Below are positions 7,901 to 25,178 of a stretch of 64,000 nucleotides of DNA, in pieces (position 1 is the stretch's first letter; each line of letters begins with the position of its first letter). Under the pieces are notes generated by a model. That model saw only the letters and a program-made list of their open reading frames with translations, made no database searches and was not told the origin of the DNA. The DNA is taken from NCBI GenBank assembly GCA_963745025.1, contig CAVUWD010000011.1:480001-544000 (forward strand), read 5' to 3'. Both the position numbers and the translations under genes were made by a program. The stretch comes from an uncultured delta proteobacterium (GTDB lineage: Bacteria; Desulfobacterota; Binatia; JACPRU01).

Positions 7901-8110
7901 ATCGTCGATCCGCAAACCGGAAAGGCACTGCCGCCGGGGACCGACGGCATCCTCTGGGTACGCGGCCCGAACGTGATGAAGGGCTACGCGGACGGCGACG
8001 GCGACGTCCTTCGCGACGGCTGGTACGTGACCGGCGATCAAGCGCGCATGGACGAGGACGGGTTTCTCACGGTGTACTACCCGCCGCCGCAGGGAAGGGG
8101 ACGTTCTTGA
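4976..8110 (+). CDS. aas: LplT-type MFS / 2-acyl-GPE acyltransferase / acyl-ACP synthetase fusion (Aas-like), ligase domain degenerate
   Basis: N-terminal MFS (QFLGAANDNAFK, FSPAKYG), NHTSWVD and FAEG acyltransferase motifs, then an AMP-binding domain (EGYG...EC, GPNVMKGY, WYVTGD). Confidence 0.85.
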   Translation: MRAMDAPAKIGLRSPRFWSFLLAQFLGAANDNAFKVTLVLLILATVSGESTQVLYSSLAAACFPIPFLLFSPIAGYFADRFPKHRVLFWTKSPEIMAMGLATFAFASASVPLLFVALFLMATHSAFFSPAKYGIFPEVFENKDLSFANGILELATNLAILSGSIAGVYVYSLFKGHLASAGLTYVGVALVGTTAVAFAPRAPAGNPNARFVWTLAASVASDWREMRKSRVLGYTLLGIAYFGFLGSLFLTLIPVFGRNVLALAEEDAGILLAVLSIGIAAGSLIAGRLSRGHVEIGLVPLGSLGISLCAFDLALFGNGSWRLPFGIPARAALDLVLLGLSSGLFIVPLNSLLQQRSPEGMKGRLIAFSNVLTFTAVLCAAGLPSLLTSLAGFTTAQVILSTAFLTVGGSLYVMNLLPDFFVRLILWLVTNTIYRVRAVGESNVPREGALFVANHTSWVDFLLIGAACDRMIRFLMFRTYYEWPALNWFFRRMGAIPVAAGDPPSKTEESLAIARRQIRDGHVVCIFAEGAITRTGNLLKFKRGFEKIASGVDCPIVPVYVEGIWGSIFSYEGGKFFFKWPKGIRRPVTVVFGEPLPSTARAHEVRSRIQELSVDAYGHRKERQRPLAIELLRAARRYGSQPLLVDGACRELGFRQTVVQAIALRDRIFARAQSDERIGILLPPGVPAALANFATTLAGRVPVNLDPTPPGDIARSMIETCGISTVLTSRAYLENVRAEAKLPRKGILDVAEIVSDLAVSRLAAAAVRWLPARAAARLLGVCDTHDVDRVATILFSYPTESPDRPRGALLSHHNLLSNLEALRQVLDVTPRDAILGLLPFSNAMSFATTLWLPVLSGARVVYGFDRLHEGLGELVAAEHVSLVAVNPTLLASLTASVSREQFASLRFAAVGGEDLPDELGEAFAAKFGIDPLEGYGRPECAPIVSLNVPDVAHGRERQTGSRPGTTGHPLPGVSVRIVDPQTGKALPPGTDGILWVRGPNVMKGYADGDGDVLRDGWYVTGDQARMDEDGFLTVYYPPPQGRGRS

Positions 8111-8199
8111 CCTTCGTAACCTTTGTCGCGTCTCTCTCCGTAGAGGACTTCGCCAAAGCGAGGAACGTGACGAAGGTTACGAAGGTCAAGAACGTCCCC
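8097..8199. mobile_element. MITE-like element with 27-bp perfect terminal inverted repeats, copy 1
   Basis: GGGGACGTTCTTGACCTTCGTAACCTT ... AAGGTTACGAAGGTCAAGAACGTCCCC; second copy at 27916-28017. Confidence 0.7.
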
Positions 8200-8200
8200 C

Positions 8201-11200
8201 TCACCAGGTGTCGATGCACGGCCGCTTCTTGCCGGCGCCGCGGCGGCGGCGGCGGCGCCGAGCGCGAGCGCGCTCACGATCCAGCGGCGCGACTCCGCCG
8301 GGTCGATCACGTCGTCGATCTCGAAGTGCGACGCGGTGTTCACGCGCCTTGCCGTGCTCGTACATGCGCGTCGACCATCTCCTCGAAGAGCGCCTTGCGC
8401 TCGGCCGGATCGTCGAGCGCCGCGAGCTCCTTGCGGTAGCCGAGCTTCACCGCACCCTCGAGGCCCATGCCGCCGAACTCGCCGGTCGGCCACGCGACGC
8501 GTGAAGAGCGGCGCCTTGAAGCTGCCGCCCGCCATCGCCTGCGCGCCGAGGCCGTAGCCCTTGCGCAGCACGATCGTGAAGAACGGCACGGTGAGGCTCG
8601 CGCCGGTCACGAACATGCGCGCGCGCGTGGCGCACGAGCGCGGTCTTCTCGACCTCGGGCCCGACCATGATGCCCGGGCGTGTCGCAGAGGAACAGGATC
8701 GGGAGGTCGAACGCGTCGCAGAGCTGCATGAAGCGCGCGGCCTTGTCGGCGCCGTCGCGTGTCGATCGCGCCGGCGAGGTGCGTCGGGTTGTTGGCGATG
8801 ACGCCGAGCGGCCGGCCCTCGATGCGCGCGAGCGCCGTGACCATGCCGAGGCCGAAGCCGCGGCGCAGCTCGAGCACCGAGCCGGTGTCGGCGAGCGTCT
8901 CGATCACCGCGCCGCACGTCGTAGACGCGCAGGCGGTTCTCGGGGATGACGGCGCGCAGCACGCGCTGGTCCGCGCATCGCCAGTCGCGACAGCGCGCCC
9001 TGGAAGTAGGAGAGGTACTGCTTCGCGACGCGCGACCGCCTCGGCCTCGTCGGCGACCGGCGACGTCGACCACGCCGTTCGGCACCTGCACGTCGATCGG
9101 GCCGACCTCCTCGGGGCGGAAGACGCCGAGCCCGCCGCCCTCGATCATCGCCGGGCCGCCCATGCCGATGTTCGAGTTCTGCGCGTCGCGATGACGACGT
9201 CGCAGCAGCCGAGCAGCGCGGCGTTGCCGGCGAAGCAGCGCCCGGAGTTGATGCCGACCAGCGGCACGAGCCCGGAGAGCCGCGCCGAAGTAGTGGAACG
9301 CCATGCAGTCGAGGCCCGCGACGCCGAGGCCGTCGGTGTCGCCCGGCCGCCCGCCGCCGCCCTCGGTGAAGAACACGACCGGCAGCCGCCGCTGCTCGGC
9401 GAGCTCGAACATGCGGTCCTTCTTGCGGTGGTTCTGCACGCCCTGCGTGCCGGCGAGCACGGTGTAGTCGTACGACATCACGACGCAGCGCGCGCCGCGT
9501 CGGCTCGAAGAGCTGCCCGTTCACGCTGCCGATGCCGGCGACCAGGCCGTCGGCGGGCGTGCGCTGCGATCAGATCCTCGAGCGTGCGGCGCGCGCGCTG
9601 CGCGGCGATCACGAGCGGGCCGTACTCGACGAAGGTCCCGGGATCGCAGAGGTCGTCGACGTTCTCGCGCGCGGTGCGCTGGCCGGTCTTGCGCCGGCGC
9701 GCGACCGCGTCGGGCCGCGCCGTCGTCGAGCCCGACCGCGTGGCGCTCGAGCACCTCGGCGAGGTCCGGGCCGGATGCGCGTCGAGATCGACCGTCGCCG
9801 CCGCGGCCTCGCGCCGCGCCGTCGACCGTCGCTCGGCTCGAGCGAACACGAGCAGGATGGCCCTCGAACGACGGTGTCGCCCGCGCGCGACGCGCGACGC
9901 GCTCGCACGACGCCGCTGGTCTCGGCCGCGATCACGTGCTCCATCTTCATCGCTTCCATCACGAGCAGCGGCTGACCCGCGCGCACCGCGTCGCCTTCGG
10001 CGACCTCGATGCGCGACGATCGTGCCCTGCATCGGCGCGCGGACGACGGCGGCGCCGGCCGGCGCGGCGCTCGGCGAGGCGGCGCGCCCGCCGCCGAGCC
10101 GCGGCGGCTCTTGCCGTGCGCGAGCACCGCGAGCGGATCGGCGCGCGTCGACCCGCGCGCCGGCGAGCTTCTGTGCCGGCCGCGCCGTCGAGCTCTCGAA
10201 AAACAGTCGTCGCTGCTCGTCGCTCGCCGCCGGAGCCAGCTCCGCGGCGTGCTCCTCGACGAAGCGCGTGTGGATCTCGTTGGCGGCCACGGCGGGATGC
10301 CGGAGCAGCGCCTGCAGGAACGCGAGGTTCGTCGCCACGCCCTCGATCCGGAACTCGCCGAGCGCGCGGTAGGCCCTCGCCACGAGCGCTCGCGAAGCTC
10401 CGGCGAGGCCGAGTGCACGATCAGCTTGGCGAGCAGCGAGTCGAAGCGCGGGCTCGTCGTCGTAGCCGGCGTAGCCGAGCGTGTCGACGCGCACGCCCGG
10501 TCCGGACGGCGGCTCGAACGCCGTGAGCGTGCCGCCCGCCGGCGTCGCCGTGCCGTCGGCGCGCATCGTCTCCATGTTGACGCGCACCTGCGATCGCCAA
10601 GCCGCGCGGCTCGGGAACGTCGCCTGTCGCAAGCCCGAGGGCTTCGAGCGAGCGTCGCCCGCGGCGAGCCGGAGCTGCGCCTCGACCAGGTCGACGCCGG
10701 TCACCTCCTCGGTCACGGTGTGCTCGACCTGCAGGCGCGGGTTCGCCTCGATGAAGACGAAGCCATCGCCGGCGTCGCCGGCGTCGACCAGGAACTCGAA
10801 CGTGCCGAGGCTCTCGTAGCGCGCCGCCTCGGCGAGCCGCACCGCCGCCGTCGGCAGCCGCTCGCGCAGGCTTCGCCGAGCCCCGGGCTCGGCGCGATCT
10901 CGACGAGCTTCTGGTGGCGGCGCTGCAGGGTGCACTCGCGCTCCCAGAGGTGACTGACCGCTCCCGTGCCGTCGCCGACGATCTGCACCTCGACGTGCCG
11001 CGCCCGGAGCAGGTAGCGCTCGACGTAGAGGTCGCCGTTGCCGAACGCCGCCTGCGCCTCGGAGCGGCAGCGCTCGAAGGCGTCCTCGAGCGTCGCGGGG
11101 TCCGCCACCACGCGCATGCCGCGGCCGCCGCCGCCGGCGACCGCCTTCAGACGATCATCGCACCCGCGCCGAGCGCGGCGAGGAACTCACGCGCCTCGGC

Positions 11201-11621
11201 GACGGTCGTCGGCCGCGACGTCCCGGGCAGGACCGGCACGCCGCAGCGCTCGGCGAGCGCCCGCGCCCGCCCTTGTCGCCGAAGAGCTCGAGCAGCTCCG
11301 CGCGCGGCCCGACGAAGCGGATCCCCGCCTCGGCGCAGCGCGCGCGAAGGCCGCGTTCTCCGCGAGGAAGCCGTAGCCGGGATGGATCGCGTCGCAGCCG
11401 GCCTCGCGCGCCACGGCGACGATCTGCTCGACGTCGAGGTAGGCGGCGGCGCCGCTTCCCCGCAGCGGCCGCGCCTCGTCGGCCCGGCGGACGTGCAGGC
11501 AACGCGCGTCGTCCTCGGAGAAGACCGCGACGGTGCGCATGCCGAGGTCGGCCGCCGCCCGCAGGATGCGGATGGCGATCTCGCCGCGGTTCGCGACCAG
11601 AAGGCTCTTCGGACGGCTCAA
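8201..11621 (-). pseudogene. Single-chain acyl-CoA carboxylase (biotin carboxylase-BCCP-carboxyltransferase), many frameshifts
   Basis: [47 protein letters not shown] (biotin Lys), DYTVLAGTQG and RKGYGLGA motifs spread over many frames; ends KKRPCIDTW*. Pseudogene or local sequence error. Confidence 0.8.
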
Positions 11622-11749
11622 CGTCTGTACTCTAGCGAGCTTCCCTAGGGACTCCAACGAGGGGCTAGCTTGTGGACTAGAACCTCGCCCGAACCCGGGA
11701 GACCGTACGGAGGATCGCGACCAACGGGAGCGATCTGTGACCGAGGCTC

Positions 11750-12262
11750 CTAGACGTCCCCGATCGGACGGTCGCGCGCGAGCTCGCGCATCGTCGTCAG
11801 CGCGAAGGCGGCGAGCGTGTCTTCGGGATCGAAGAAGCGCGTCTCGACGAAGTTCGTGCGGCCGCGCCGCTTGACGAGCCGGCTCTCCATGAGGAACTCG
11901 GGGCCGACGATCGGCTCGAAGAAGTCGACTCGCAGATTGGTCGTCGCGAGCCAGGTGCGAAAGCGCTCCTCCACCCGCGACTCGCCCGCGCGCACGGTGA
12001 AGAGAGCCACGAGGTCGACGTAGGTCGGCGTGAAGCCGCCGAAGAGCTGGCCGCGCGGGTTGCGGACGTGGTGCGGCAGATGCGCACGGATCTTCAAGAA
12101 CCCCTGGCTCTCCTCGAGGACCTTCCACTCGTGGGCCTGCAAGAAATCGCCGGCCGGATGACCCTTGCCGAGGAGCTGGCCCGGTTTGCGGGAGGCCCAC
12201 GCGCGGAGGAACGCCGGCTGCTCGGGCTTCACGCTGCTCATGAAGGGATCGAGTCGGGGCAT
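11750..12262 (-). CDS. PaaI-family hotdog thioesterase
   Basis: [10 protein letters not shown]...[13 protein letters not shown] and RGRT hotdog-fold motifs; 170 aa. Confidence 0.8.
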
Positions 12263-12346
12263 GACGGGCGCACACTCTACCTGCGTGCGGCGCGGAGTCT
12301 AGGGCCGCTTGACTTCGCGCCCCCGAGGGCGGAGGCAATCCCCCGC

Positions 12347-13366
12347 GTGAAGCCCGTATCGTTCGAGACGCTCCGGCGGCAGGCCGCGACCCTCCAGGTC
12401 GCGGAGCGATTCTTCGACTCGGCGGTCCTCTTCGCTCTGTTCGAGCTCGGCATCTTCGCCGCGCTCGCGAGCGGGCGAAAGACGCTCGACGACCTGCAGC
12501 AACAGACCCGCGGGGACCGCGACACGCTCGAGGCGATCCTCGACGCCGCGGTCGCTCTGCGGGTGCTGTCGCGGAAGGATGGGGCGTACGAGGCGAGCGG
12601 CGTGCTCCTCGATTGCCTGGGACGTGCCGGCTCGCCTCAGTACGTCGGCGAGTGGATCTCGTGGCTGCATGCCGTCGCGCCCTCGCTGATGCGCTTGGCC
12701 TGGTCCGTGCGGTCCGCAGAGCCGGGAATCGCCGCCGACCTCGGCCCGGGCGACGGCATGCTCGATCGCATCCGTACGCGCGCCATGGACGTCTATGCCC
12801 GCACGCACGCTCCGGAGTTGGCGGAGCGGATCGACTTCTCCGCGACGAATACGCTGCTCGATCTCGGCTGCGGATCGGGCGCCTATTCGTTCGCGATCGT
12901 GGAGCGGCATCCCAAGGTCTCTGCCACCCTGCTCGACGTCCCGGAGGTCATCGCCGAGGCGCGCGCGATCGCCACCGGCCGCGGGCTCGCCGAACGCTTG
13001 GACTTCATCGCGGGCGACGCCCTGACGTGCAAGCTCGGCCGATCGTTCGACGCCGTCCTCGTCTCGAACGTCCTCCACATGCTCGGCGAGGCGGGCTCTC
13101 GCACGCTCCTGCGCCACTGCCACGAGCTCTTGCGGCCGGGCGGTCGGATCGTCGTCCAAGGACAGTTCCTCGACGAGGACCGCGCGTCGCCACGCTGGGC
13201 GACGCTGCTCAACTTGATTCTCCGTGCCGTGACGAGGGAGGGCCGGAACCACAGCGCGGCCGAGGGCTTGGCGTGGCTCCGCGAGGCTGGCTTCGCGGAG
13301 GCGCACCACGTTCGCTTCTCCCCCTGGAACGCGAACAGCGCCTTGGTGGGTAGCCGAGCGAATTGA
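12347..13366 (+). CDS. SAM-dependent methyltransferase (O-methyltransferase type with dimerisation domain)
   Basis: N-terminal ALFELGIF winged-helix; [22 protein letters not shown] motifs. Confidence 0.85.
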
Positions 13367-13415
13367 CGATCGCCGAGAAGTCGTGCAGCAAGCGGCGCGA
13401 AGGAGTCGAAGCATC

Positions 13416-14753
13416 ATGCCGATCAAGCCGGAGTTCGACGTTGGGATCATCGGAGGCGGGCCGGCCGGCTCGGCAGCCGCAGGCTATCTCGCCAAGGCAG
13501 GCGTTCGCTGCGTCGTGTTCGAGCGCGAAATCTTTCCGAGGCCTCACGTCGGCGAGTCGTTCGTCCCCTCGACGACGAGGGTGCTGCGGGATCTCGGCTT
13601 CATCGATCAGATGGAGAACGCGAAGTTCCCCAGAAAGTACGGCGCGGCCTGGACCAGCAGCGCGCAGGCCACCTACAGCCACGACTTCCAGGATCTGCCC
13701 ACCGACTACAACGTCGACGTGCGCTTCGAGGAACGGGAGCAGCCGGGGGTGGACCGGAATTACACGTACCACGTGGACCGCGGGCTCTTCGACATGATGT
13801 TACTGCGCCACGCGAGCACCCTCGGCGCCGACGTTCGGGAAGGCGTCCATGTGGGTCAAATCGACTGCGAAGGCGATCCGTTTCCCGTCATCACCGCGAC
13901 GACCGACGGGAAAGAGTTCCGCACGTCGGTTCGCGTGGTGCTCGACGCGAGCGGCCGTCACACGACCCTCGGCTCGCAGCTCCGGTTGAAGGTGACCGAC
14001 CCCGTATTCAACCAGTTCGCGATCCACACCTGGTTCGAGGATTTCGACCGCGGATCGGGACCGAAGGCCGATTACATCTTCATTCACTTCCTCCCGGTCA
14101 CCAATAGCTGGGTCTGGCAGATTCCCATCACCACGACCGTGACGAGCTTCGGCGTGGTGACGCAGAAGCACAACTTCGCCAAGTCTCGCGCCTCGCGCGA
14201 ACAGTTCTTCTGGGACTGCGTCGCCAGCCGGCCCGAGCTTCTCGAAAAGCTCCGTCAGTCGCGTCAGGTCCGGCCGTGGAAGGAAGAGGGCGATTACAGC
14301 TACGCGATGAAGCAGATCTGCGGCAACGGATTCGCGCTCATCGGAGATGCCGCTCGGTTCGTCGACCCGATCTTCTCGAGCGGGGTGTCGATCGCCATGA
14401 ACAGCGCGCGGCTGGTCGCCGCGGACGTGCTTCGCGGGCTCGAGCGCGGCGGACCGTTCACCCGCGAGAGCTTCCGCGAGTTCGAGGCGACCATGCGCCG
14501 CGGGACCAACAACTGGTACAAGTTCATCACGCTCTACTACCGCCTGAACGTGCTGTTCACGTACTTCGTGTCGAACCCGAAGTACCGCACGCAGGTGATT
14601 CAGCTGCTCCAGGGAGATCTCTACGACGAGGACGAGCCACCGGTGCTGACGAAGATGCGCGAGCTCGCCAAGACCGTCGAAGACAACGAGAACCACATCT
14701 GGCACTCGATGCTCGGCACGCTGACGGCGAACGCGTTTCGGCCGGCGTTCTAG
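13416..14753 (+). CDS. Flavin-dependent halogenase, carrier-protein-tethered type (PltA/CndH/Bmp2-like)
   Basis: GGGPAG FAD motif, FPRPHVGES, Lys in FPRKYG at the catalytic position, WVWQIP (WxWxIP) and GDAARFVDPIFSSGV. Confidence 0.85.
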   Translation: MPIKPEFDVGIIGGGPAGSAAAGYLAKAGVRCVVFEREIFPRPHVGESFVPSTTRVLRDLGFIDQMENAKFPRKYGAAWTSSAQATYSHDFQDLPTDYNVDVRFEEREQPGVDRNYTYHVDRGLFDMMLLRHASTLGADVREGVHVGQIDCEGDPFPVITATTDGKEFRTSVRVVLDASGRHTTLGSQLRLKVTDPVFNQFAIHTWFEDFDRGSGPKADYIFIHFLPVTNSWVWQIPITTTVTSFGVVTQKHNFAKSRASREQFFWDCVASRPELLEKLRQSRQVRPWKEEGDYSYAMKQICGNGFALIGDAARFVDPIFSSGVSIAMNSARLVAADVLRGLERGGPFTRESFREFEATMRRGTNNWYKFITLYYRLNVLFTYFVSNPKYRTQVIQLLQGDLYDEDEPPVLTKMRELAKTVEDNENHIWHSMLGTLTANAFRPAF

Positions 14754-14782
14754 CCTGAAGCGAACGTACTTGGAGCGATCGC

Positions 14783-14910
14783 GCACACGGGCCCGGACCC
14801 GACTTGGACGCACACGAGCTCTTCCTCGGAGCCGCGGATGCCTCCAAGGACGACCCCCGCGACTCCCCTGGCGTTCGCGAACGTGTCCGAGTCGGGTGCG
14901 GGCTTCGTGC
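14783..14910. repeat. Imperfect ~28-bp inverted repeat between convergent genes
   Basis: GCACACGGGCCCGGACCCGACTTGGACGC versus GTGTCCGAGTCGGGTGCGGGCTTCGTGC; the core motif recurs at ~31266-31283. Confidence 0.5.
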
Positions 14911-14941
14911 ACTCCGCGGGCGAGACTATTTCCGGTCGAGC

Positions 14942-16087
14942 CTAGAGACCGAGCTTCGTCGCGATGATGTGTCGCTGGATCTCGGAGGTGCCGGAATAGA
15001 GCGTGCCGCCGATCGCGTCGCGGAGCTCTCGCTCGTAGGGTAGCGCGGTCGTGTAGCCGTATCCGCCGTGGATCTGAATCGCGTCGAGGCACGACTCGAC
15101 GAACGCTTCCGAGACGTAGAGCTTGGCCATCGCCGATTCGAGCTCCGCGCTCCGCCCTTGCTCCTTCAACGATCCGACACGGTAGACCAGCGGCCGCGCA
15201 GTCTCGAGGCGAAGCTTCATGGCGACGATGCGGTTCGCGACCGACTGGAACTTGCCGATTGCCTGTCCGAACTGCTTTCTCCGCTGGGCGTGCACGATGC
15301 ATTCCTCGAGCTGCCGTCGCATGGTACCGAGGCAGCTCGCGAGAATGCATCCGCGCTCCCACTCCATCGAGGAGTGAAACACCTCCGCACCTCGCCCTTC
15401 GCGGCCGAGACGGTTCTCCACAGGCACGCGAACATCCTCGAAGGTGACCTCGGCCATCGGCGAGGTCCTGAGACCCGTCTTGTCGATCGGGCTCCGCACG
15501 GTGACGCCCGGCGTGGAACGCTCGACGAGAAACGTCGAGATGCCCAGGACTCCACGCGCGGGGTCGGCCGTGGCGTACGTCAGGAACAGGTCGGCGACGG
15601 GCGCGTTGCTGACGAAGGTCTTGGCGCCGTTCAGCGCGTAGCCGTCGCCGTCGCGGACGGCGCGCGTGCGGAGCGCGAACACGTCCGACCCCGCGTCCGC
15701 TTCGCTCGCGGCGTTCGCGCCGATGGACGTGCCGTCCGAGAGTCCGCGAAGATATCGCTCCTTCTGCGCGCTCGTGCCGTGGAGCAGGATCGGCATCGAC
15801 ACGCTCCAAAGGTGCGCGTTGATCGAGAAGAGCAGGCCGTGGTCTCTGCAGGCGTAACCGAGTCCCTCCATCACGGCAATCGTCGCGAGCGGTCCCTCTC
15901 CCCGTCCGCCGTACTCGGGTGGGATCGGCAGACCGTGAACGCCGAACTCCGCGCAAGCGCGCCAACCTTCGCGCGAGAACGTGCCCGACCGATCCGCGGC
16001 GGAGACGTCGAAGGTCAACCGGCTGCGCGCGAACGCGATGGCCGCCCGCTGCAGCTCCTCGTGCTCGGGGCTCAGGCCGAAGAGCAT
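14942..16087 (-). CDS. Acyl-CoA dehydrogenase family, probably L-prolyl-PCP dehydrogenase (PltE/RedW-like)
   Basis: ACAD motifs (SEADAGSD, GAKTFVSNAP, QIHGGYGY) plus GLLFSINAHLW, MEWERGC and YSGTSEIQR as in prolyl-PCP oxidases; overlaps the A-domain gene. Confidence 0.8.
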   Translation of the reverse strand: MLFGLSPEHEELQRAAIAFARSRLTFDVSAADRSGTFSREGWRACAEFGVHGLPIPPEYGGRGEGPLATIAVMEGLGYACRDHGLLFSINAHLWSVSMPILLHGTSAQKERYLRGLSDGTSIGANAASEADAGSDVFALRTRAVRDGDGYALNGAKTFVSNAPVADLFLTYATADPARGVLGISTFLVERSTPGVTVRSPIDKTGLRTSPMAEVTFEDVRVPVENRLGREGRGAEVFHSSMEWERGCILASCLGTMRRQLEECIVHAQRRKQFGQAIGKFQSVANRIVAMKLRLETARPLVYRVGSLKEQGRSAELESAMAKLYVSEAFVESCLDAIQIHGGYGYTTALPYERELRDAIGGTLYSGTSEIQRHIIATKLGL

Positions 16088-17664
16088 CGTTCGATCATTA
16101 CCCCACGCCGCTCGTCGGCTTCGAGTCGGCGGTAATCGACCTTGCCCGTCGACGTGCGCGGTAGTGCATCGGCAAAGGCGAAGTGGTCGGGAATCATGTA
16201 GTCGGGCAATACGTCCGCACAGAAGCGCTTGAGCTCGATCACCGACGGACGAGGCTTGCGAGACAGTCCGAGAAACGCCTTCACGCGAAGACCGTCGACG
16301 TCGTCGGCAAGCGCGATCACCGCCGCCTCGCGAACCACCGGATGACGATGAAGGGCCGCTTCGATCTCGCCGAGCTCGACACGATACCCGCGACGCTTCA
16401 CCATCCGGTCCCGCCGGCCGAGAAACTGGTACTCTCCCTCGCCGTTCTCCACGACGACGTCGCCGGTCCGGTACCATCGCTCGCCCGGGGCCATCTCGAG
16501 AAAGGCTCGCTCCGTCTCCCCCGGCCGGTTCCAGTAGCCGAGCATCACCGTGGGCCCGCGCACGCACAGCTCGCCTTCCGAGCCGGCAGGCACGGGGCGA
16601 CCGCTTGCGTCGACGACGATCGTGCGGAGATGCGAGCAGGCTCGTCCGATCGGGTAAGGCCGAGCGCGATCCTCGGGAATCGTCGGCGGGATCTCGAACG
16701 CGGTACAGACGTTGGTCTCGGTCGGCCCGTAGAGGTTGAAGTACCGGGGCGCTGGCCAGAGCGACTGTAGCGCGCGCAGAGGCACGACCGGGAATACCTC
16801 TCCGGCGAAGAGCACCAGACGCAAATCGGGATAGCGCCGGCGCGCGAGCTTGCCGTACCTCGCGAGCAAGGCGAGCACCGAAGGAACGGAGTACCAAACC
16901 GAGATCCGCCGCTCGGCGATGAGCGCCGCCAGCCGCAGCGGCTCCTTCCCCGTGGCGTCGCTGATCAACACGACGCGCGCGCCGTGGCGGATCGCGACGT
17001 AGAGATCGAAGGCAGACAAGTCGAAATGCAGGGGCGCGTGCGACGAGAAGCAATCGGCGGACGTGGGGTGGAACGTCTGCGAAGCCCAGTCGACGAAGCT
17101 CAAGGCGGCGGCGTGCGAGATCATCACGCCTTTCGGCGTCCCCGTCGACCCCGACGTATAGAGGACGTAGGCGGGCTCACCGGGGTGAGCGTCCACGGCG
17201 TCAAGCGCGGGCGGGCGGCCAGTTCGAGGGCTCTCTGCCAGGGCTTTCCGCAGACCGTCGCCGCGACCCACGTCGTCGAGCGTGACCACGGACGCCTCCG
17301 CGAGATCCTCGCGGAGCGGATCGGCGGATCGGCGCTCGAGCACGGCCGCGCTCACCCGAGCGTCCCTGACGATCGCGCGGTTTCGCTCGGCCGGTGCGCT
17401 CGGGTTCAGGGGCAAGTACGCGGCACCCACCTTCATCGCGGCGAAAATGGCGGCGACGGCGTCGATCGACTTCGGTACGCAGACGGCCACACGATCTCCG
17501 CGCCGTACTCCGAGCCGCCGAAGCGCCTCGCCGGCCGCGTCCGCGAGCGCCGCGAGCTCGTCGTACGTGATCGAGGCACCGCCTTCCTCTTCGAGGGCAA
17601 CTCGGGCCGGCCAAGCTTCGGCGGCACGCCACAGGAGCTCGTGCAGGAGCCGAATCTCAGCCAT
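16072..17664 (-). CDS. Stand-alone amino-acid adenylation enzyme, proline-type (PltF/RedM-like)
   Basis: YTSGSTGTPKG, FDLS, NLYGPTETNVC, YRTGD, PRTSTGK. Specificity residues read by eye as DLFYLALVCK. Confidence 0.85.
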   Translation of the reverse strand: MAEIRLLHELLWRAAEAWPARVALEEEGGASITYDELAALADAAGEALRRLGVRRGDRVAVCVPKSIDAVAAIFAAMKVGAAYLPLNPSAPAERNRAIVRDARVSAAVLERRSADPLREDLAEASVVTLDDVGRGDGLRKALAESPRTGRPPALDAVDAHPGEPAYVLYTSGSTGTPKGVMISHAAALSFVDWASQTFHPTSADCFSSHAPLHFDLSAFDLYVAIRHGARVVLISDATGKEPLRLAALIAERRISVWYSVPSVLALLARYGKLARRRYPDLRLVLFAGEVFPVVPLRALQSLWPAPRYFNLYGPTETNVCTAFEIPPTIPEDRARPYPIGRACSHLRTIVVDASGRPVPAGSEGELCVRGPTVMLGYWNRPGETERAFLEMAPGERWYRTGDVVVENGEGEYQFLGRRDRMVKRRGYRVELGEIEAALHRHPVVREAAVIALADDVDGLRVKAFLGLSRKPRPSVIELKRFCADVLPDYMIPDHFAFADALPRTSTGKVDYRRLEADERRGVMIERCSSA

Positions 17665-17941
17665 GGGTCGAGCGAAGCTTCGAATGCACGAAGCGAACGA
17701 TTCGTCCGATCGAGTCCAGATTGTCGAAGTCCGCCTCGTGGGCTTCGACCTCGAATCCAAATCGAGTCTCCAAGAAGCCGACGAGCTTCAGGGCCGCGAT
17801 CGAATCGAGGATCTTTCCGCTGATGAGCAGAGTGTCCTCACCGAGCTCCGAGGGATCTTCGCCGGGCAGAAATTCCGTCAGAATGAAGCTCTTCACGGCT
17901 TCGCCGATCTCGCTGTCCACGGGGGTAGACGGATCGTTCAT
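17657..17941 (-). CDS. Acyl/peptidyl carrier protein (PltL/DltC-like)
   Basis: 94 aa acidic protein with ILDSI phosphopantetheine-attachment Ser; overlaps both neighbours. Confidence 0.85.
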   Translation of the reverse strand: MNDPSTPVDSEIGEAVKSFILTEFLPGEDPSELGEDTLLISGKILDSIAALKLVGFLETRFGFEVEAHEADFDNLDSIGRIVRFVHSKLRSTHG

Positions 17942-20430
17942 TGCCCCTCCAGCGCCTGCCGAAATCCGGGACGGAGCAGATCGATTCCGCCCCGCTCGAG
18001 GATCTCGGCGTACAGTCTATCCGCGATCATGCGATGCCCCTCGGCGTTCGGGTGGAAGTCCCAATCTGTGAGCCTCAAGCCCGCGAGGTCTCGTCCGTCG
18101 AACAGCCCTTCGAGGTTCATCGCGACGAAGCCGGGCGGCGGATGCGGAGCCGGCATGGATGCCGTTCGCGGATCCAGCGACGGCAACCATGCCCACAACG
18201 GCAGCACACCCCGTTCCGCACACTGCTTGGCGATCGTATCGTCGACCCATGAGAGCAAGGTTTGCGCGCGCGGTCGAAGCCGTCGCAGCATCTCCGCCTC
18301 CGACATCCCCTTGCGAACGCCCGCCTGCTGCAGAAGTTCGCGTACGAACGGGTACGGCGGCCAACTGTCGCGCTCGGTCGCGAGCCGCAAGTCGTGAATC
18401 TCCATCAGGAGGTCGCCGGCCTGGGCGACGTGCAGAACCGCATCCGGTTCGAAGGCGAATGCCTTGAGCTCGAGGCTCATGAGCCTCTGCAGCGGACCGT
18501 AGCCGCCGACCGCGAAGTTGAGGATCTCGTAGCGGAGCCCACTTCGCGCGCCGAGCTCGCGGTTGAGACGTTCCTCGAGTAGCGTCTCGAACGTCTCGTC
18601 GTCCCCGACGCCGCTTCCCATGACGAAGGAGCCGCCGAGCAGCGCGATTCGATACGTCCCTCTTGGCTTGCTGCGGCTGTACTCTCGATCTCGCATCCCC
18701 CAGCCGTTCGTGTGGAGACGAGCACCCTTGAAGACGAGGTTCGCAAATGGGATCAGCTCGTGCCCTCGATAGTCCCTCGTCGGGCCCCATAGCGGGGTCT
18801 TCCCCCAACCAGGAGACCGTTTGAGCGTGAGCTCCCAGAGCTGCGAGTTGAAGCGGTCCGCGTTCATCAAGTCCTCGTAATAGCCTCGTTGCAGCCTGGC
18901 GAGGTCGACCCGGTTCAGCGATACGGAGCGCAGCGGCGCCATCGCTTCATCGAGCGGCGGAGCGAAGGCTCGGCACACTTCGGGTGATCCGGCCAGAGCC
19001 AGCACCAGCAGCGTGACCGAGGTGACGCCCGCGGCGTTCCAGAAGGAAGACGCCCCCTGCAAATGCCGATCCGAGGCCACCGCGCTGCGCGCCGCCGTCG
19101 CTTCCGGGATTGTGCTCGCGACAGCCAACAGGGCGGTGCCGATCACCACGCCGACCGGCCCCATCAGCCGAGAAGCCGTCTCCCCCGCCCAGCCGTTACC
19201 CAGCACGGACCAAACCGCAATCCATTCCTCGAGGGAATCGCTCGTCCAGAGCGACCAAAGGATGGAGATGCCGACGAACGTGGCGGCGACCCTCGCCGCG
19301 CGCACCGCGAGGAGCCTCGGCCGGCTGATGATGACGGCGTCGCCCCTCGGCTCCTTGCGACGAAACTCTGCAAGCGTCGCAGCCGTCATCAGGATGGCGA
19401 GAATCGTCCAGAAGACCCCGTCCTGCCAACGCAGCGGGAACGATCCCTCGATCCAGAACCATTGGCAGGCATGCAGAAACCAAGTCATCACCACTACGTA
19501 GACCGTCGACAGCACGAGCGCCGCGGCCGCGCCGCGACGGCGAAGCCGAAAGTAGGCGGGGTAGAAGAAGAGCTTCAGCATGAAGTCCTTCCAGTAAATG
19601 TTGATCCGCCGCCAGAAGTCGCCGACGCCTGTCGAGAGAAAGTAGCGGTGGTGGGTCTCGGGAAGTGCGAAGCCGAAAAGATGCAGCATCCCGACGACCA
19701 CGTGAAAGATGCCCGAGACCCGCATGTAGAGGGCGAAGCTCGTCACCACGAAGCGCGCGAGGTCCCAAACGGACGTGACCTCCGAGGGGGGGATCGTCGC
19801 GTAGAGATAAACCGCCCGGTAGAGCACGAGGTGTACGATTCCCCGGCTGATCCATTGGAGGCCGACCTGCGCGTTCCAATCCGGGTCGTCCTGAAGATGT
19901 GTACGCCGGAAGGTCTTGAAATCGACCACCGGGAAGAGCGCGAAGCAGACGTTCGGCAACAGAAAGAAGTACCCGAGCGCGTAGCCGGGCGACCACGCGA
20001 AGCGTTCGTGGCGGAGGTCGTAGAAGTAGATCAGGGTGCGAAAGACGAACATCGATCCGAGGACCGGGAGGACGGCGGCCTCGAAGGGTAGCGGCAGCCA
20101 CTCGAGTCGAAGTGCCGCGAGAGCTCCACAGGCGACGACCAATAACGCTCCACGGATCCGGAAGGACAGAGGGAGATGACAAATTGCGAGAACCGCCAAA
20201 CCGATTGCCACGACCCACGTGCCGGCCCAAGCGCCCAGCACGAGGTAGATCGCGCAAATCGACAGAGTGACGAAAAAGCCGAGTCGAAGCCGAGCCGGTA
20301 GAACGGCGTGCACCGCCGCGCCCGCCAGCGCGGCCATGGACGTGCGGACGAACGCCGTCCCGCCGATCTCGAACTGGCGGATGACGAGCGCCGCGACCCC
20401 GAGCTCGACGCAAAGCGCGAGCCGCTTCAC
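17938..20430 (-). CDS. MBOAT (AlgI/DltB-like) membrane acyltransferase fused to a C-terminal SGNH domain
   Basis: Multi-TM N-half with DFWRRINIYWKDF and TWFLH. C-half has LGGSFVMG, NFAVGGYG and DFHPNAEGH (SGNH blocks). Start may extend to 20556. Confidence 0.8.
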   Translation of the reverse strand: MKRLALCVELGVAALVIRQFEIGGTAFVRTSMAALAGAAVHAVLPARLRLGFFVTLSICAIYLVLGAWAGTWVVAIGLAVLAICHLPLSFRIRGALLVVACGALAALRLEWLPLPFEAAVLPVLGSMFVFRTLIYFYDLRHERFAWSPGYALGYFFLLPNVCFALFPVVDFKTFRRTHLQDDPDWNAQVGLQWISRGIVHLVLYRAVYLYATIPPSEVTSVWDLARFVVTSFALYMRVSGIFHVVVGMLHLFGFALPETHHRYFLSTGVGDFWRRINIYWKDFMLKLFFYPAYFRLRRRGAAAALVLSTVYVVVMTWFLHACQWFWIEGSFPLRWQDGVFWTILAILMTAATLAEFRRKEPRGDAVIISRPRLLAVRAARVAATFVGISILWSLWTSDSLEEWIAVWSVLGNGWAGETASRLMGPVGVVIGTALLAVASTIPEATAARSAVASDRHLQGASSFWNAAGVTSVTLLVLALAGSPEVCRAFAPPLDEAMAPLRSVSLNRVDLARLQRGYYEDLMNADRFNSQLWELTLKRSPGWGKTPLWGPTRDYRGHELIPFANLVFKGARLHTNGWGMRDREYSRSKPRGTYRIALLGGSFVMGSGVGDDETFETLLEERLNRELGARSGLRYEILNFAVGGYGPLQRLMSLELKAFAFEPDAVLHVAQAGDLLMEIHDLRLATERDSWPPYPFVRELLQQAGVRKGMSEAEMLRRLRPRAQTLLSWVDDTIAKQCAERGVLPLWAWLPSLDPRTASMPAPHPPPGFVAMNLEGLFDGRDLAGLRLTDWDFHPNAEGHRMIADRLYAEILERGGIDLLRPGFRQALEGQ

Positions 20431-20772
20431 GCTAGGCGAGACGGCGATGTCCCATTGCAGTCCTGCCGACCGCGCCGACTGCAGAGTGAGGGTCGGCCAT
20501 GTCGATGTGCCTCTAATTCGTAGTTCGTCCGGCACGCGATATACGACTCGACACAAGCGCCCGTCATCTCACAGGCCGGTGGCCGCGCGGACCTTCTTAT
20601 TCGAACGATAGGCCGCCTGCAAGCAGGGCCGCGGCGCAAAGGTCGCTGCGATCGCGCTGGAGGCCAGTGTTGCTCGACGCGCGCGGCAGGAACGCGATCG
20701 TCGCAGCTGTCAGCTGCTGCTTGCGGGGGACCGGACCATTGCCTATCTAATTCGGGCGGGGAATCGGGATTC

Positions 20773-22488
20773 GTGAGGATCGTCGCGCTACTCACCGTTC
20801 GAAACGAAGAACGCTTCCTCCGCCGATGCCTTGATCATCTGGTCGGCCACGGGGTCGAGGTCTGCGTCGTGGATAACGACTCGACGGACGGCACCCCGGC
20901 AATCGCCAGGACCTTTCTCGGCCGCGGCGTCTTCCGCATCGAGCGGGCTCCGTACCGCGGTATGTTCGCATTGCACGAGCAACTTCGCGACAAGGAACGA
21001 CTCGCGGCGGAGATCGACGCCGACTGGTTCCTGCACCACGATGCGGACGAGATCCGCGAGGCGCCTCCGCCCTATTCCACGCTGCGCCAGGGGATCGAGG
21101 CCGCGGATCGCTTCGGGTCCAACGCGATCAATTTCGATGAGTTCGTGTTCCTGCCGGCGAGCGAGGACGAATCATTCGAGGGGGCGGATTACGTAGCAGC
21201 GATGCAGCACTACTATTTCTTCGAACCCCGTCCGCTGGCGCGAGTGAACGCTTGGAAGAAGCTCCCCGGCGTCGCCGTTCGCTTGGCGGAATCCGGCGGT
21301 CATTCGGCGGATTTCCCGGGCCGACGAATCTTCCCCGTTTCCTTCGTGCTTCGTCACTACGTCACGCTCAGCCGCGCACACGCGATCGCGAAGTACGCAG
21401 GGCGCGTCTATTCCCGGACGGAAGTCGCGGACAAGGGATGGCACCGGGCGCGAGCGAGCTTTGCTCCCGAACGGCTCCGTTTTCCGCCTCGCGAGCGCCT
21501 GAAGCGGATCGGTCCGCCGGGGGTCTGGGATCGTTCGGACCCGTGGCGTCGGCATGAATTCCTCGGAGAAGAGTCGCCGCGGCCGGCCGCGGCGGCAAAA
21601 TCGCAGAGGCCCGGCGCATCGGCCGATTTTCCCCCAGCCGTGTACATCGTCGGTGTGCCTCGGTCGGGAACGACGCTCTTGCGCTTGATGCTGGACGCGC
21701 ACCCCGAGGTTTCGATTCCACCCGAGACGCATTTCGTTCCAGCGGTGCTGGCGCTGCGAAGCGACGGTGACGACCTTCGTCGCGAGATCCTCGCTGTTGT
21801 GACGGGGGCCGACTCGTGGCCCGATTTCCACGTCCCCGCGGAAGCTTTCCGGCAGGCCGTCGCGGACATTCGGCCGTTCGATCGAGCGGCTGCACTCCGT
21901 TGCTTCTATCGACTCTATGGCGGCCGTTTCGGCAAGGCTCGCTGGGGCGATAAGACGCCGGGCTACACGAATCACCTGCGCGCCATCCAGGAACTGTTGC
22001 CTGAAGCGCGATTCGTTCACGTCATCCGCGACGGTCGTGACGTGGCGCTCTCGTCCCGCGACCTACGGTTCGGACCGGGCGCAGATCTCGAAGCTCAAGC
22101 CAGCAATTGGCTCTGGCGGATCCGTGAAGCGCGACAGCAAGGACAAGGATGCAATCACTACCTCGAAGTGCGTTACGAGGACCTCGTCGTCGACACGCGA
22201 GTGGTGCTCGAACGAGTCTGTCGTTTTCTAGAGCTTCCTTACGATCCCATCATGGAGGCTTACCACCACACAGCCGCGGCGCGCTTGAACGAGCTTGGCG
22301 ACCGTCGATACCCGAACGGATCGATCATGGTATCCGCAGAACGCCGTCGGTCATTTTTCGCATGGACGCTCCGTCCTCCGGACGTGTCGCGGATCGAGCG
22401 CTGGCGAACGGAGATGCCTACCGACGAGAAGCGCTGCTTCGAGGTCATCGCCCGCGACATGCTACTCGATCTAGGTTACGCATGCTGA
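20773..22488 (+). CDS. GT2-like glycosyltransferase fused to a PAPS sulfotransferase
   Basis: RNEE, DNDSTDGT and HHDADE in the N-half; VGVPRSGTTLL, WGDKTP, IRDGRDV and RYEDLV in the C-half. Confidence 0.85.
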   Translation: MRIVALLTVRNEERFLRRCLDHLVGHGVEVCVVDNDSTDGTPAIARTFLGRGVFRIERAPYRGMFALHEQLRDKERLAAEIDADWFLHHDADEIREAPPPYSTLRQGIEAADRFGSNAINFDEFVFLPASEDESFEGADYVAAMQHYYFFEPRPLARVNAWKKLPGVAVRLAESGGHSADFPGRRIFPVSFVLRHYVTLSRAHAIAKYAGRVYSRTEVADKGWHRARASFAPERLRFPPRERLKRIGPPGVWDRSDPWRRHEFLGEESPRPAAAAKSQRPGASADFPPAVYIVGVPRSGTTLLRLMLDAHPEVSIPPETHFVPAVLALRSDGDDLRREILAVVTGADSWPDFHVPAEAFRQAVADIRPFDRAAALRCFYRLYGGRFGKARWGDKTPGYTNHLRAIQELLPEARFVHVIRDGRDVALSSRDLRFGPGADLEAQASNWLWRIREARQQGQGCNHYLEVRYEDLVVDTRVVLERVCRFLELPYDPIMEAYHHTAAARLNELGDRRYPNGSIMVSAERRRSFFAWTLRPPDVSRIERWRTEMPTDEKRCFEVIARDMLLDLGYAC

Positions 22489-22574
22489 ACGACCCGATCA
22501 TCATCGGCGGCTGCGATCGCTCGGGAACGAGCCTGCTGCGACGCATGCTGCACGGACATTCGCGGATCCACTGA
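22482..22574 (+). pseudogene. Truncated sulfotransferase (N-terminal 30 aa only)
   Basis: MLNDPIIIGGCDRSGTSLLRRMLHGHSRIH* is a PAPS-binding N-terminus, coupled to the upstream stop and ending at the convergent gene. Confidence 0.7.
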
Positions 22575-22578
22575 CGCC

Positions 22579-23484
22579 TCAATCGCAGCGCGTTTCGAAG
22601 CCTAGGCCTTTCACGTACGCGACGTCCTCGACGTCGAAAACGTCCAGCCCGAATTTCCTGAAGCGTCCTTTGGAGCTTGGTGCGTGCACCACATTCTCCA
22701 GAGCCCGCTGGTCGTCGGCCCGCTCGCCGAGGAACCGGAGGAGCCTGTCGAGACCTTCGTGCGGCGACGAACAGAGACGGTCGTAGTCGAGCAGCAAAAA
22801 CCGCCCCGGCATCGTTTCCCCGACTGCCAGGACGCGTCGATGGACGGCGCACCAATACTTCAAAGACCACCGCGGGCTCACGCTGTAGTCATGCGTCCCC
22901 AAGAATGAGGGACCCCAGAAGAGGAGCTGGCTCTGGTTCGAGCTGTGCGCCATGTCTAGGCCGTTTCTCATCACGTGGACGTATTTCATCTCCGGAAACG
23001 CAACCACGAGCCGATCGAGGAAGACGTGCGTGTTCGGCTCCTTCCATCCCCAGCGCCGAGGGGACCGGCCGGTTCTTCGCAGCGAAGCGAAATGCTTCGC
23101 GAGCCACTGCCGCCAACGTGGCGCGCGCCCCGCGGCGCGCACCAGCGAGTCCACGCGCGCGCGGAGCCACGCGGCGTCGTGCTGTGGCCGATCCTGTGCC
23201 GCGAGGCCATGCACCCACGCCACCTGGGCATCCGTGAGAGGCAGGCCATCCGCCATCACGCTCCGGAAGATGTCGACAGCTCGATCGAAGCTCTGCGAGC
23301 TCCGGTCAGCCCTCCCTAGCTCGGCCCGTTTGAAGAGCAGCGTGAACCAAAGATTGTCCGTGGCCTCATTCAAATCTCCGCCGAGGTAGTAACCGAGCCG
23401 TCGGAGAAGCTCCGCGACCAAGCGCGTGCCGCTCCCTCCCACGCCGCCGACAGCCACGGGCGGAACCGAGACGCGACTCCACAT
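22579..23484 (-). CDS. Sulfotransferase family protein
   Basis: GGVGGSGTR, WGWKEP, RNGLDMA and YDRLC motifs; GAGGGAGG RBS. Confidence 0.8.
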   Translation of the reverse strand: MWSRVSVPPVAVGGVGGSGTRLVAELLRRLGYYLGGDLNEATDNLWFTLLFKRAELGRADRSSQSFDRAVDIFRSVMADGLPLTDAQVAWVHGLAAQDRPQHDAAWLRARVDSLVRAAGRAPRWRQWLAKHFASLRRTGRSPRRWGWKEPNTHVFLDRLVVAFPEMKYVHVMRNGLDMAHSSNQSQLLFWGPSFLGTHDYSVSPRWSLKYWCAVHRRVLAVGETMPGRFLLLDYDRLCSSPHEGLDRLLRFLGERADDQRALENVVHAPSSKGRFRKFGLDVFDVEDVAYVKGLGFETRCD

Positions 23485-23611
23485 CCTGCCTCCCTCCCGC
23501 TGGACTGGCGGATCCGTTTTCACGACTGGCGAACCAGTCGCCGCAGGACTTCTTGACGCAGCGTTCGCCCGGCCGCTACACCGTTCTTTGCACTCATTCA
23601 ATCAGGATCAC

Positions 23612-23665
23612 GGACGCCGAGGAGGGCGTGACGGATGCTCCACACCATGCTTCGGCTCGGCGATC
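23612..23665 (+). repeat. Degenerate copy of the gloA RBS and first codons
   Basis: Matches 28904-28966 apart from a 7-bp deletion removing the ATG, a 2-bp deletion and two substitutions. Confidence 0.7.
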
Positions 23666-23723
23666 GTTTGGACGCCATCGTCGGAATCCCGCCCGGGCTC
23701 CGCTCCTTGGAAGGATCCGGGTC

Positions 23724-24422
23724 ATGAGGGTCGCGGTCGTCACTCCTTATTACAAGGAATCGCTCGAGGTCCTGCGCAACTGCCACGAGAGCGTGACGCG
23801 CCAAAGGCATCCCTGTCTTCACGTGATGGTCAGCGACGGGAATCCGCGGCCGGAGCTCGCGAGCTGGCCAATCGATCACGTCACATTGCCCCGGCTCCAC
23901 GCCGACGTCGGCTCGACGCCGCGACTGATCGGCTCGTATCACGCGATCGGCCTCGGCTTCGATGCGGTCGCGTTTCTCGATGCGGACAATTGGTATCGAG
24001 AAGACCACATCGAGAGTCTGGTACGCTTGCATCAGACGACGCGCGCCGGCCTGGTCTCGTCTTCGCGTATGTTGTGTCGACTCGACGGGTCGGTGATGGG
24101 GCCGTGCCCGATCAGCGACCCGGACAAGTTCGTCGACACCAGTTGCATGATGGTGACACGCGCTGGTTTTCGCATCCTCGCGCAGTGGGTGCTGATGCCG
24201 CCGTATGCCCACCTCATCGGCGACCGTGTGATGCTCTACTACTTCAAGCAAGCCGGCGTGTGTCACGCGCACTCGGGCGCGCCGAGCGTCTTCTATCGAT
24301 GCGGCAAGGAGGGCCCCTACCGAAAGATGGGAGAGCCGATCCCTGCCGAAGTCAAGCCTCCGCCGGATTACGATTCTTCCTTTCGAAAGTGGATCGAGGA
24401 CGGAAACCCGCCTTTGATCTAG
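23724..24422 (+). CDS. Glycosyltransferase family 2 (GT-A)
   Basis: MRVAVVTPYY, VSDG, AFLDADN and FVDTSC motifs. Confidence 0.8.
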   Translation: MRVAVVTPYYKESLEVLRNCHESVTRQRHPCLHVMVSDGNPRPELASWPIDHVTLPRLHADVGSTPRLIGSYHAIGLGFDAVAFLDADNWYREDHIESLVRLHQTTRAGLVSSSRMLCRLDGSVMGPCPISDPDKFVDTSCMMVTRAGFRILAQWVLMPPYAHLIGDRVMLYYFKQAGVCHAHSGAPSVFYRCGKEGPYRKMGEPIPAEVKPPPDYDSSFRKWIEDGNPPLI

Positions 24423-24435
24423 GCTCGGAGGTCGA

Positions 24436-25173: not shown

Positions 25174-25178
25174 GGGGC

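Follow-up and report, generated by a model that had tools for sequence, protein, structure and literature searches.

A 64,000-nucleotide stretch of DNA from an uncultured delta proteobacterium (contig CAVUWD010000011.1, positions 480,001 to 544,000; hereafter the window) carries a run of four overlapping genes. They encode a protein in which a divergent membrane-bound O-acyltransferase (MBOAT) domain is fused to an SGNH domain, a stand-alone carrier protein, a stand-alone adenylation domain and a flavoenzyme of the acyl-CoA dehydrogenase (ACAD) fold. Sequence or fold evidence supports the assignment of the genes to their families, the residues that are conserved, the operon arrangement and the linkage of the genes across loci. 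On balance we favour a Dlt-like route, in which a pyrrole-2-carbonyl group, here probably halogenated, would be moved from the carrier to the MBOAT domain, on to an invariant tyrosine and the SGNH serine and finally to an extracytoplasmic acceptor. More tentatively, the cassette may represent a second carrier-fed MBOAT/SGNH pathway of envelope acylation besides Dlt, one that would place pyrrole-2-carbonyl esters outside the cell, halogenated (perhaps also methylated) before export in the window's subclade, and that would use a GYYE motif as its relay.

The window is part of contig C11 of a 5.65 Mb metagenome-assembled genome (MAG). The four genes all lie on the minus strand: the fusion (17938-20556; 865-872 amino acids, with a probable GTG start at 20535), the 94-residue carrier (17657-17941), the 530-residue adenylation domain, which is of the proline type (16072-17664), and the 381-residue FAD-dependent enzyme, a putative prolyl-carrier-protein dehydrogenase (14942-16086). 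The fusion and carrier genes overlap by 4 nt (an ATGA shared by stop and start), the carrier and adenylation domain genes by 8 nt and the adenylation domain and ACAD genes by 16 nt. On the plus strand, genes for an FADH2-dependent halogenase of the PltA/Mpy16/ChlB4 type (13383-14753) and an S-adenosylmethionine-dependent methyltransferase (12068-13366, with the real start probably near 12250; Pfam Methyltransf_2, PF00891-type, with a dimerisation domain) converge on this run. All of these genes are found where an earlier sequence-only reading had placed them. That reading had also claimed that the window holds no polyketide synthase (PKS) or condensation domain, and we too found no condensation or ketosynthase domain within it; the only condensation domain of the genome is on contig C10 and the PKS, one large open reading frame (ORF), is on C12.

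The fusion protein begins with an MBOAT domain that has about 13 helices; this is followed by two more transmembrane (TM) helices, a flexible linker containing GYYE and a C-terminal SGNH domain. The sequence-only reading had called it an MBOAT-SGNH protein, a label that stands on profile-profile and fold comparison but is not readable from Pfam profiles. The Pfam MBOAT model (PF03062) matched neither the window protein, nor any of 16 family members (E<=1), nor the six-frame translation of the genome, and a sequence search of the PDB with a profile of 60 fusion family members gave no MBOAT, NCBIfam likewise giving nothing. Alignment of these 60 members to 14 canonical MBOATs from related genomes with hhalign, on the other hand, gave a Prob of 96.6% (E 5.6e-10) over 333 columns. 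The AlphaFold2 model of the fusion (mean predicted local distance difference test score, pLDDT, 84.8; predicted template modelling score, pTM, 0.80) was used in a Foldseek search, where the best match was DltB (6bug_C, E 9e-6, TMt 0.53), with 8jem_A (TMt 0.61) and then HHAT, PORCN and LPCAT3 behind it; the matches of the C-terminal third of the model were GDSL/SGNH esterases. By profile-profile comparison and predicted fold, then, the membrane domain belongs to the MBOAT superfamily. The ESM Atlas, searched with the homologue P0094, returned MBOAT-bearing clusters at 0.83 and 0.77 only, which we regard as a lead.

The pattern of conservation was investigated in 131 full-length members of the fusion family, chosen to represent clusters at 50% identity. 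Invariant in all 131 (P0001 numbering; codons on the minus strand) are His278 (19702-19704), Asn312 (19600-19602), His355 (19471-19473), Tyr552, Ser636 (18628-18630) and His828 (18052-18054), and close to invariant are Tyr553 (130), Asn673 (18517-18519; 129) and Asp826 (18058-18060; 126). His355 aligns with the WHG histidine in the hhalign alignment and is the putative catalytic histidine of the MBOAT domain. Asn312 is at the position of the 'WH' histidine (FWRRWH motif) of canonical bacterial MBOATs. The SGNH signature is complete, with the block I serine (Ser636), the block III asparagine (Asn673) and the block V aspartate and histidine (Asp826 and His828); Pfam Lipase_GDSL_2 scores the window fusion at 23 bits, under its cutoff of 32.9, and matches 14 of the 16 family members at E<=1. 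To judge by a comparison of helix parity with that of canonical MBOATs, this domain would be periplasmic.

Tyr552 and Tyr553 (18877-18882, minus) form the centre of GYYE. A FIYFQF-type motif forms the C-terminus of 13 of the 14 canonical stand-alone MBOATs of the related genomes and, as far as the available text of PMC12148441 describes it, such a motif, located past the last TM helix, acts as an acyl-tyrosine shuttle from the MBOAT to the SGNH protein. Past the LWSLWTS helix there are two more TM helices before GYYE, which puts it at the topological place of the FIYFQF-type motif in the canonical proteins, and the pLDDT of residues 551-566 in the model is below 50, as would fit a flexible segment. 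By analogy, GYYE is a candidate internal acyl shuttle in place of the terminal motif.

Linkage of the fusion to the other three genes was examined in 80 loci, the best of at least 535 stretches carrying the fusion in species-representative genomes. Of these, 39 are well flanked (at least 6 kb either side of the fusion), and a partner was counted if it lay within 10 kb. The carrier, the adenylation domain and the ACAD are all near the fusion in 35 of the 39 well-flanked loci and in 49 of the 80 overall, many of the remaining loci being cut by contig ends; the common order is fusion, carrier, adenylation domain, ACAD. The exceptions among the 39 are L055 and L066, with the carrier only, L057, with the ACAD only, and L069, with none of the three. 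No PKS, nonribosomal peptide synthetase (NRPS) or FabH family is among the recurrent neighbours of the 80 loci, so that the association proposed from the sequence, of an MBOAT protein with this cassette and without a PKS/NRPS, is borne out. Outside the core, the most widespread real neighbours are a GT4 family and halogenase-like genes, with 12 loci each; ORF clusters that recur more often than this are shadow frames of the core genes themselves.

Thirteen named phyla are represented among the 80 loci, the hosts being mostly of Gram-negative-type phyla and Chloroflexota. The fusion family has 2077 matches among 8000 candidates scored and, at E<=1e-30, falls into 619 clusters of 50% identity. 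At the same threshold a sample of 150 other genomes from the window's phylum gave no match, so its distribution is patchy. Among plasmids, a single one, from Microvirga, carries the fusion. In two cultured carriers of the cassette its neighbours are unrelated housekeeping genes. The four-gene core is thus a self-contained, mobile and patchily distributed module, to which the halogenase and methyltransferase are accessory. As the module occurs in bacteria that are cultured and non-pathogenic (Mesorhizobium temperatum, M. ventifaucium, Pseudothauera rhizosphaerae, Pelomicrobium sp. G1 and Microvirga sp. VF16) it is directly testable. In P. rhizosphaerae a gene for an AcpH-type acyl carrier protein phosphodiesterase (Pfam ACP_PD; L062:8920-9684) is immediately upstream of the cassette, which may be coincidence.

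The carrier has its phosphopantetheine serine, Ser47, in an LDS motif (17801-17803, minus), and Asp46 and Ser47 are invariant in 32 cassette carriers. It scores 19.8 bits against Pfam PP-binding, slightly below the cutoff. In NCBIfam all 32 carriers match ACP_for_OlsHI (NF052616; 103 bits for the window protein, under the cutoff of 130) and the second most frequent match is the DltC model PRK05087, which 30 of the 32 match (best E 1e-10; 17.2 bits for the window protein, under the cutoff of 68). From these profiles the family resembles DltC more closely than it does most acyl carrier protein families, though the top model is still ACP_for_OlsHI. NF052616 is described as an 'ornithine lipid biosynthesis acyl carrier protein (for OlsHI)'; the available text of the OlsH/OlsI paper mentions no carrier gene in that operon. 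Its matches in the PDB include a peptidyl carrier protein (2my5, 35 bits) as well as the carriers Bmp1, DltC and PltL. A complex of MBOAT residues 30-460 with the carrier, both given as alignments, was predicted with a median score of 0.47, the best of three controls scoring 0.00; contact agreement between the runs was at least 79% and the partner pLDDT at least 77. Of 80 solved complexes, 58 pass the mark used for such scores, as do 2 of 110 mismatches; passes at or below 0.60 come from only 7 of the 80 and from both mismatches, and we rate the prediction as weak support. Since the DltB-DltC complex is solved, the pass may also reflect likeness to it.

The adenylation domain appears to be specific for proline. 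Over its full length the best single-domain match in the PDB is PltF (6o6e, 354.7 bits), with DltA at 217 bits, and for a 126-residue segment containing seven of the ten code positions the scores are 99.4 bits for PltF and 80.2 for PigI, the next match being at 57 and DltA at 53. By sequence, therefore, the domain is not a D-alanine-specific DltA. The DltA models of NCBIfam score 274-279 bits, under their cutoffs of 476-560, and TIGR01733 scores 385.9 bits. The code given in the sequence-only reading, DLFYLALVCK, was reproduced, and together with the similarity to PltF and PigI it is of the proline type and not of the D-Ala, Gly or fatty-acid type. To the D-L-F-Y-L-A-L of the window PltF aligns D-L-L-Y-L-A-L and PigI D-L-F-Y-I-A-W; the PigI from the pig cluster of Pseudoalteromonas xiamenensis has the code DLFYIAWVC. 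Of 57 cassette adenylation domains, 42 have the code DLLYLALVCK, six have DLFYLALVCK and the other nine differ by single residues.

The two top NCBIfam families of the ACAD are PigA (433.6 bits) and RedW (402.9 bits), with the next at 287.8; both scores are under the equivalog cutoffs (500 and 650 respectively), so that the enzyme is orthologous to neither PigA nor RedW. Against the PDB it scores 425.7 bits with AnaB, 320.5 with Bmp3 and 312.8 with a PigA-type enzyme, ordinary ACADs reaching at most 265.5. It is also the top of 58 ACAD-type matches in its own genome (403.8 bits, against 257.7 for the runner-up). A quick maximum-likelihood tree of 61 sequences was calculated (midpoint root, support from the Shimodaira-Hasegawa-like approximate likelihood ratio test, SH-aLRT, only; ACAD matches under 330 residues left out). 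The window enzyme forms a clade with 52 cassette or plasmid homologues and the PigA of the pig cluster (SH-aLRT 100), outside which fall seven ACAD paralogues of the same genome. Both tree and profiles therefore group it with the prolyl-carrier dehydrogenases and apart from ordinary ACADs, in agreement with the features of a prolyl-carrier oxidase noted in the sequence-only reading. None of the three outcomes by which that reading could have been refuted was observed: an adenylation domain for D-Ala, Gly or a fatty acid, an ACAD of the ordinary kind, or a cassette tied to a PKS/NRPS with no conserved MBOAT linkage.

The halogenase, noted in the sequence-only reading for its WxWxIP motif, has the sequence WVWQIP there and GGGPAG at the GxGxxG motif, and its similarity to PltA-type enzymes is full-length: over residues 14-456 its three top PDB scores are 559.5, 548.4 and 538.8 bits, all from enzymes of this type (Mpy16, ChlB4 and PltA), the next match being CndH at 176. 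Mpy16, ChlB4 and PltA act on pyrrolyl-S-carrier proteins. Trp_halogenase-family ORFs are near the cassette in only 12 of the 80 loci (ten of the 12 with a WxWxIP copy), so halogenation would be a lineage-specific addition and not part of the core. The ACAD tree divides the cassettes into a 38-row subclade, with strict gene order and a halogenase in none of the 38 loci, and a 15-row subclade containing the window. Of the 11 genome loci in the latter, 10 have a halogenase-like ORF, and nine of these 10 show WxWxIP. Members of this subclade include the closest relative (locus L001), a locus from a Pirellulales MAG of the Planctomycetota (L058), Chloroflexota loci, the Microvirga plasmid and two plasmid cassettes with an enzyme like β-ketoacyl-acyl carrier protein synthase III (KAS III).

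The methyltransferase is found at 50% identity or above in two loci only, L001 (83%) and L058 (50-56%); comparison with PigF (25% identity) was uninformative. L058 has, within 6123-17227, two paralogous fusions, two carriers, an adenylation domain, an ACAD (65% identical to that of the window), a halogenase (58%) and the methyltransferase. That this locus has the whole gene set indicates that the halogenase and methyltransferase are real accessory genes of the subclade and not chance neighbours, and their presence in the subclade argues for an aromatic pyrrole as the tethered intermediate here.

A pathway can be proposed from these assignments by analogy with DltC/DltB/DltX/DltD and PatA/PatB. 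The adenylation domain, from its sequence specificity, would adenylate L-proline and load it onto Ser47 of the carrier. The flavoenzyme would then oxidise the prolyl-S-carrier to the pyrrolyl-2-carbonyl-S-carrier, a four-electron outcome that we infer because a halogenase of the pyrrolyl-carrier type is present. In this lineage the PltA-type halogenase would chlorinate or brominate the tethered pyrrole, and the methyltransferase may methylate it. The carrier would dock at the cytoplasmic face of the MBOAT domain, where His355 would catalyse transmembrane acyl transfer, probably to Tyr552 in the flexible periplasmic linker. Tyr552 would hand the acyl group to Ser636, and the SGNH domain would esterify a hydroxyl of an extracytoplasmic acceptor, be it a polymer, a lipid or a protein.

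A number of observations weigh against this pathway. The MBOAT domain is unrecognised by Pfam, the FIYFQF-type C-terminal motif is absent from the fusion (in the first 12 family members examined) and the role given to GYYE is argued from its position alone. The ACAD falls below the PigA and RedW cutoffs and its closest solved relative is AnaB, an enzyme that stops at pyrroline and feeds a PKS. One PKS and one condensation domain are present on other contigs of the genome, and the MAG is 92.65% complete with 7.6% contamination. Because related genomes are not independent, the locus counts overstate their statistical weight. No gene for the biosynthesis of a glycan or lipid acceptor is conserved beside the cassette in the 80 loci, and the syntenic L001 is without the glycosyltransferase/sulfotransferase island of the window, having other DNA there. 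Finally, from its sequence the SGNH domain could be a transferase or a hydrolase.

This last point allows an alternative in which the SGNH domain hydrolyses acyl-Ser636, such that free (halo)pyrrole-2-carboxylic acid would be secreted as a diffusible metabolite and the surface would not be decorated. The lack of conserved acceptor-synthesis genes, the occurrence of the module in unrelated genomic contexts and the structural neighbours of the SGNH domain, which are mostly esterases and thioesterases (TesA, lipases), would all fit with such a role. A cytoplasmic thioesterase and an exporter would be a simpler route to the same end, however, and in the available text of PMC12148441 the characterised bacterial MBOAT/SGNH pairs are transferases. 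The tyrosine motif and the fused architecture are kept in the 131 diverged representatives, which fits a relay, though hydrolysis is still compatible with it. Overall we consider export and release unlikely.

It would seem rather improbable that the cargo here is instead a dehydroprolyl (pyrroline-carbonyl) group, formed by a two-electron oxidation of the AnaB type. AnaB outscores Bmp3 and the PigA-type enzyme as the best solved relative of the ACAD and the larger ACAD subclade is free of halogenases; a pyrroline is most plausible in that halogenase-free majority and is possible in the window if the halogenase has another substrate. Set against this are the PigA and RedW families at the top of the NCBIfam matches and the scores of 539-560 bits of the window halogenase with enzymes of pyrrolyl-S-carriers. 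Flavin-dependent halogenases require an electron-rich ring, and the halogenase-like ORFs follow the window's ACAD subclade.

It is very improbable that the pyrrolyl-S-carrier is a starter for a PKS/NRPS product made elsewhere, with the MBOAT-SGNH protein separate from it and engaged, for example, in the acetylation of a polymer from acyl-CoA: although the known pyrrolyl-carrier cassettes (pyoluteorin, prodigiosin, bmp) feed PKS/NRPS lines and the genome does hold its condensation domain and large PKS ORF on C10 and C12, this is hard to reconcile with a four-gene unit that is conserved and overlapping, with only one of the 39 well-flanked fusion loci lacking all three partners, with linkage across phyla in which no PKS, NRPS or FabH recurs, and with the absence from the fusion of the C-terminal motif of MBOATs that use acyl-CoA.

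Compared with known systems, the cassette that we read as a relay is closest in its logic to Dlt, in which a stand-alone adenylation domain loads a small carrier and an MBOAT and an SGNH-type protein deliver the acyl group outside (for the mechanism, see PMC12148441, in its available part). In the structural comparison, too, the membrane domain matches DltB best, and 30 of the 32 carriers match the DltC model. The differences are that the adenylation domain is of the proline and not the D-Ala type, that an ACAD-type oxidase, here with a halogenase and methyltransferase, would act on the tethered cargo, that the MBOAT and SGNH domains are in one chain, and that no DltX microprotein was seen, the internal GYYE being in its place. 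The fusion differs from canonical MBOATs in having an asparagine for the upstream histidine, and the proposed product, an aromatic ester without charge, would contrast with the cationic aminoacyl ester of Dlt.

PatA/PatB and AlgI/AlgJ/AlgX likewise combine an MBOAT with an SGNH partner and use an acyl-tyrosine shuttle but, according to the available text of PMC12148441, they are fed by acetyl-CoA without a carrier. Their two proteins are separate, whereas those of the cassette are fused, without the C-terminal hexapeptide and with an MBOAT domain too divergent for Pfam. Dlt is given in the same text (PMC12148441, 2025; available part) as the only MBOAT/SGNH pathway with a carrier protein, the other such pathways being without one.

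The upstream chemistry of the cassette resembles that of PltF/PltL/PltE with PltA, PigI/PigG/PigA, Bmp4/Bmp1/Bmp3 with Bmp2, and RedM/RedO/RedW, with which it shares a near-identical proline code, a prolyl-carrier dehydrogenase and a PltA-type halogenase. Those cassettes pass the pyrrole to a PKS/NRPS or a thioesterase; the cassette described here has the MBOAT-SGNH fusion as its conserved fourth gene and no linked PKS/NRPS. In clorobiocin and coumermycin biosynthesis, CloN1-7/CouN1-7 transfer pyrrole-2-carbonyl from a carrier to an O-ester on a noviose hydroxyl through an acyl-serine enzyme. That system is cytoplasmic and soluble, consisting of a FabH-like enzyme and an alpha/beta-hydrolase that act on a small-molecule acceptor, and involves no membrane passage, MBOAT or SGNH protein. 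AnaC/AnaD/AnaB of anatoxin-a is also a stand-alone proline-loading system, with AnaB the closest solved relative of the ACAD, and has neither a halogenase nor an MBOAT.

The two plasmid cassettes in the window's ACAD subclade are from Mycetohabitans rhizoxinica pBRH01 and a Streptomyces microflavus plasmid (L103:6137-10113 and L104:6106-10113) and consist of genes for a KAS III-like enzyme, an acyl carrier protein, an adenylation domain and an ACAD. Their ACADs are 54-56% identical to that of the window and the order carrier, adenylation domain, ACAD is the same. In S. microflavus the adenylation domain code is DLFYLALVCK; in Mycetohabitans the gene is split and the code readable in part. The soluble KAS III-like enzyme stands upstream of the carrier, where the MBOAT-SGNH fusion is found in the other cassettes, so that these look like the soluble-transferase counterpart of the MBOAT cassette. 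To our knowledge they have not been characterised.

The sequence-only reading knew of no described example of such a system, and none was found in the open full-text literature, in which our searches turned up no account of an MBOAT-SGNH protein combined with a carrier, adenylation domain and ACAD (subscription papers and supplements, including those of PMC12148441 and of its reference 25, were outside the search). The code string of the adenylation domain was likewise found in no paper of that literature. Were the proposed relay to operate, heteroaromatic and sometimes halogenated esters would be a new chemical class of bacterial envelope modification, and the window's subclade would have an organohalogen-decorated cell surface. 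Dlt-type logic would reach well past Gram-positive bacteria, and tailoring of the natural-product type on a carrier (pyrrole oxidation and halogenation) would be coupled to a transmembrane acyl relay. The fusion, with its different motif, would also offer a natural variant of the acyl-tyrosine shuttle for mechanistic work.

Beyond the halogenase and methyltransferase genes lies that of a hotdog-fold thioesterase (11750-12262, minus; Pfam 4HBT, 25.6 bits), which adjoins the cassette without being conserved with it, being present in none of the 80 loci. L001, which is syntenic with the window on both flanks of the cassette, has an ORF resembling an alpha/beta-hydrolase (19560-20330) at this place. 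It also has an extra 507-residue multi-pass membrane protein between the ACAD and the halogenase (15483-17003), and its fusion gene is in two frames (9767-12506), and so contains a frameshift or an assembly error. The glycosyltransferase/sulfotransferase island of the window (20773-25533) contains a GT2-sulfotransferase fusion (571 amino acids), two more sulfotransferase-family genes and a GT2 gene; since it is replaced in the syntenic L001, it does not belong to the conserved unit.

A scan for terminators and promoters gave no signal exceeding the shuffled expectation. No RNA data sets were listed as containing window positions 13383-20556, and the DNA sets contain them in part, to at most 0.49 of their words. 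The G+C content across the window is 62-74%. An acyl-CoA carboxylase gene (8077-11650, minus), with biotin carboxylase, biotinyl and carboxyltransferase parts, is split over several frames in the window, whereas its orthologue in L001 is a single open frame of at least 724 amino acids; either the split gene is a pseudogene, or its frames were broken by assembly indels, the G+C content of this stretch being 72-74%. Next to it, on the plus strand, one ORF of 1067 amino acids (4907-8110) combines an MFS transporter, a PlsC-type acyltransferase and an AMP-binding domain. It resembles a lysophospholipid transporter fused to an Aas-type reacylation enzyme and is not conserved next to the cassette elsewhere. 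Further along, a gene at 29665-30522 (plus) encodes a RES-domain protein, a type known from RES-Xre toxin-antitoxin pairs; it appears unrelated to the cassette.

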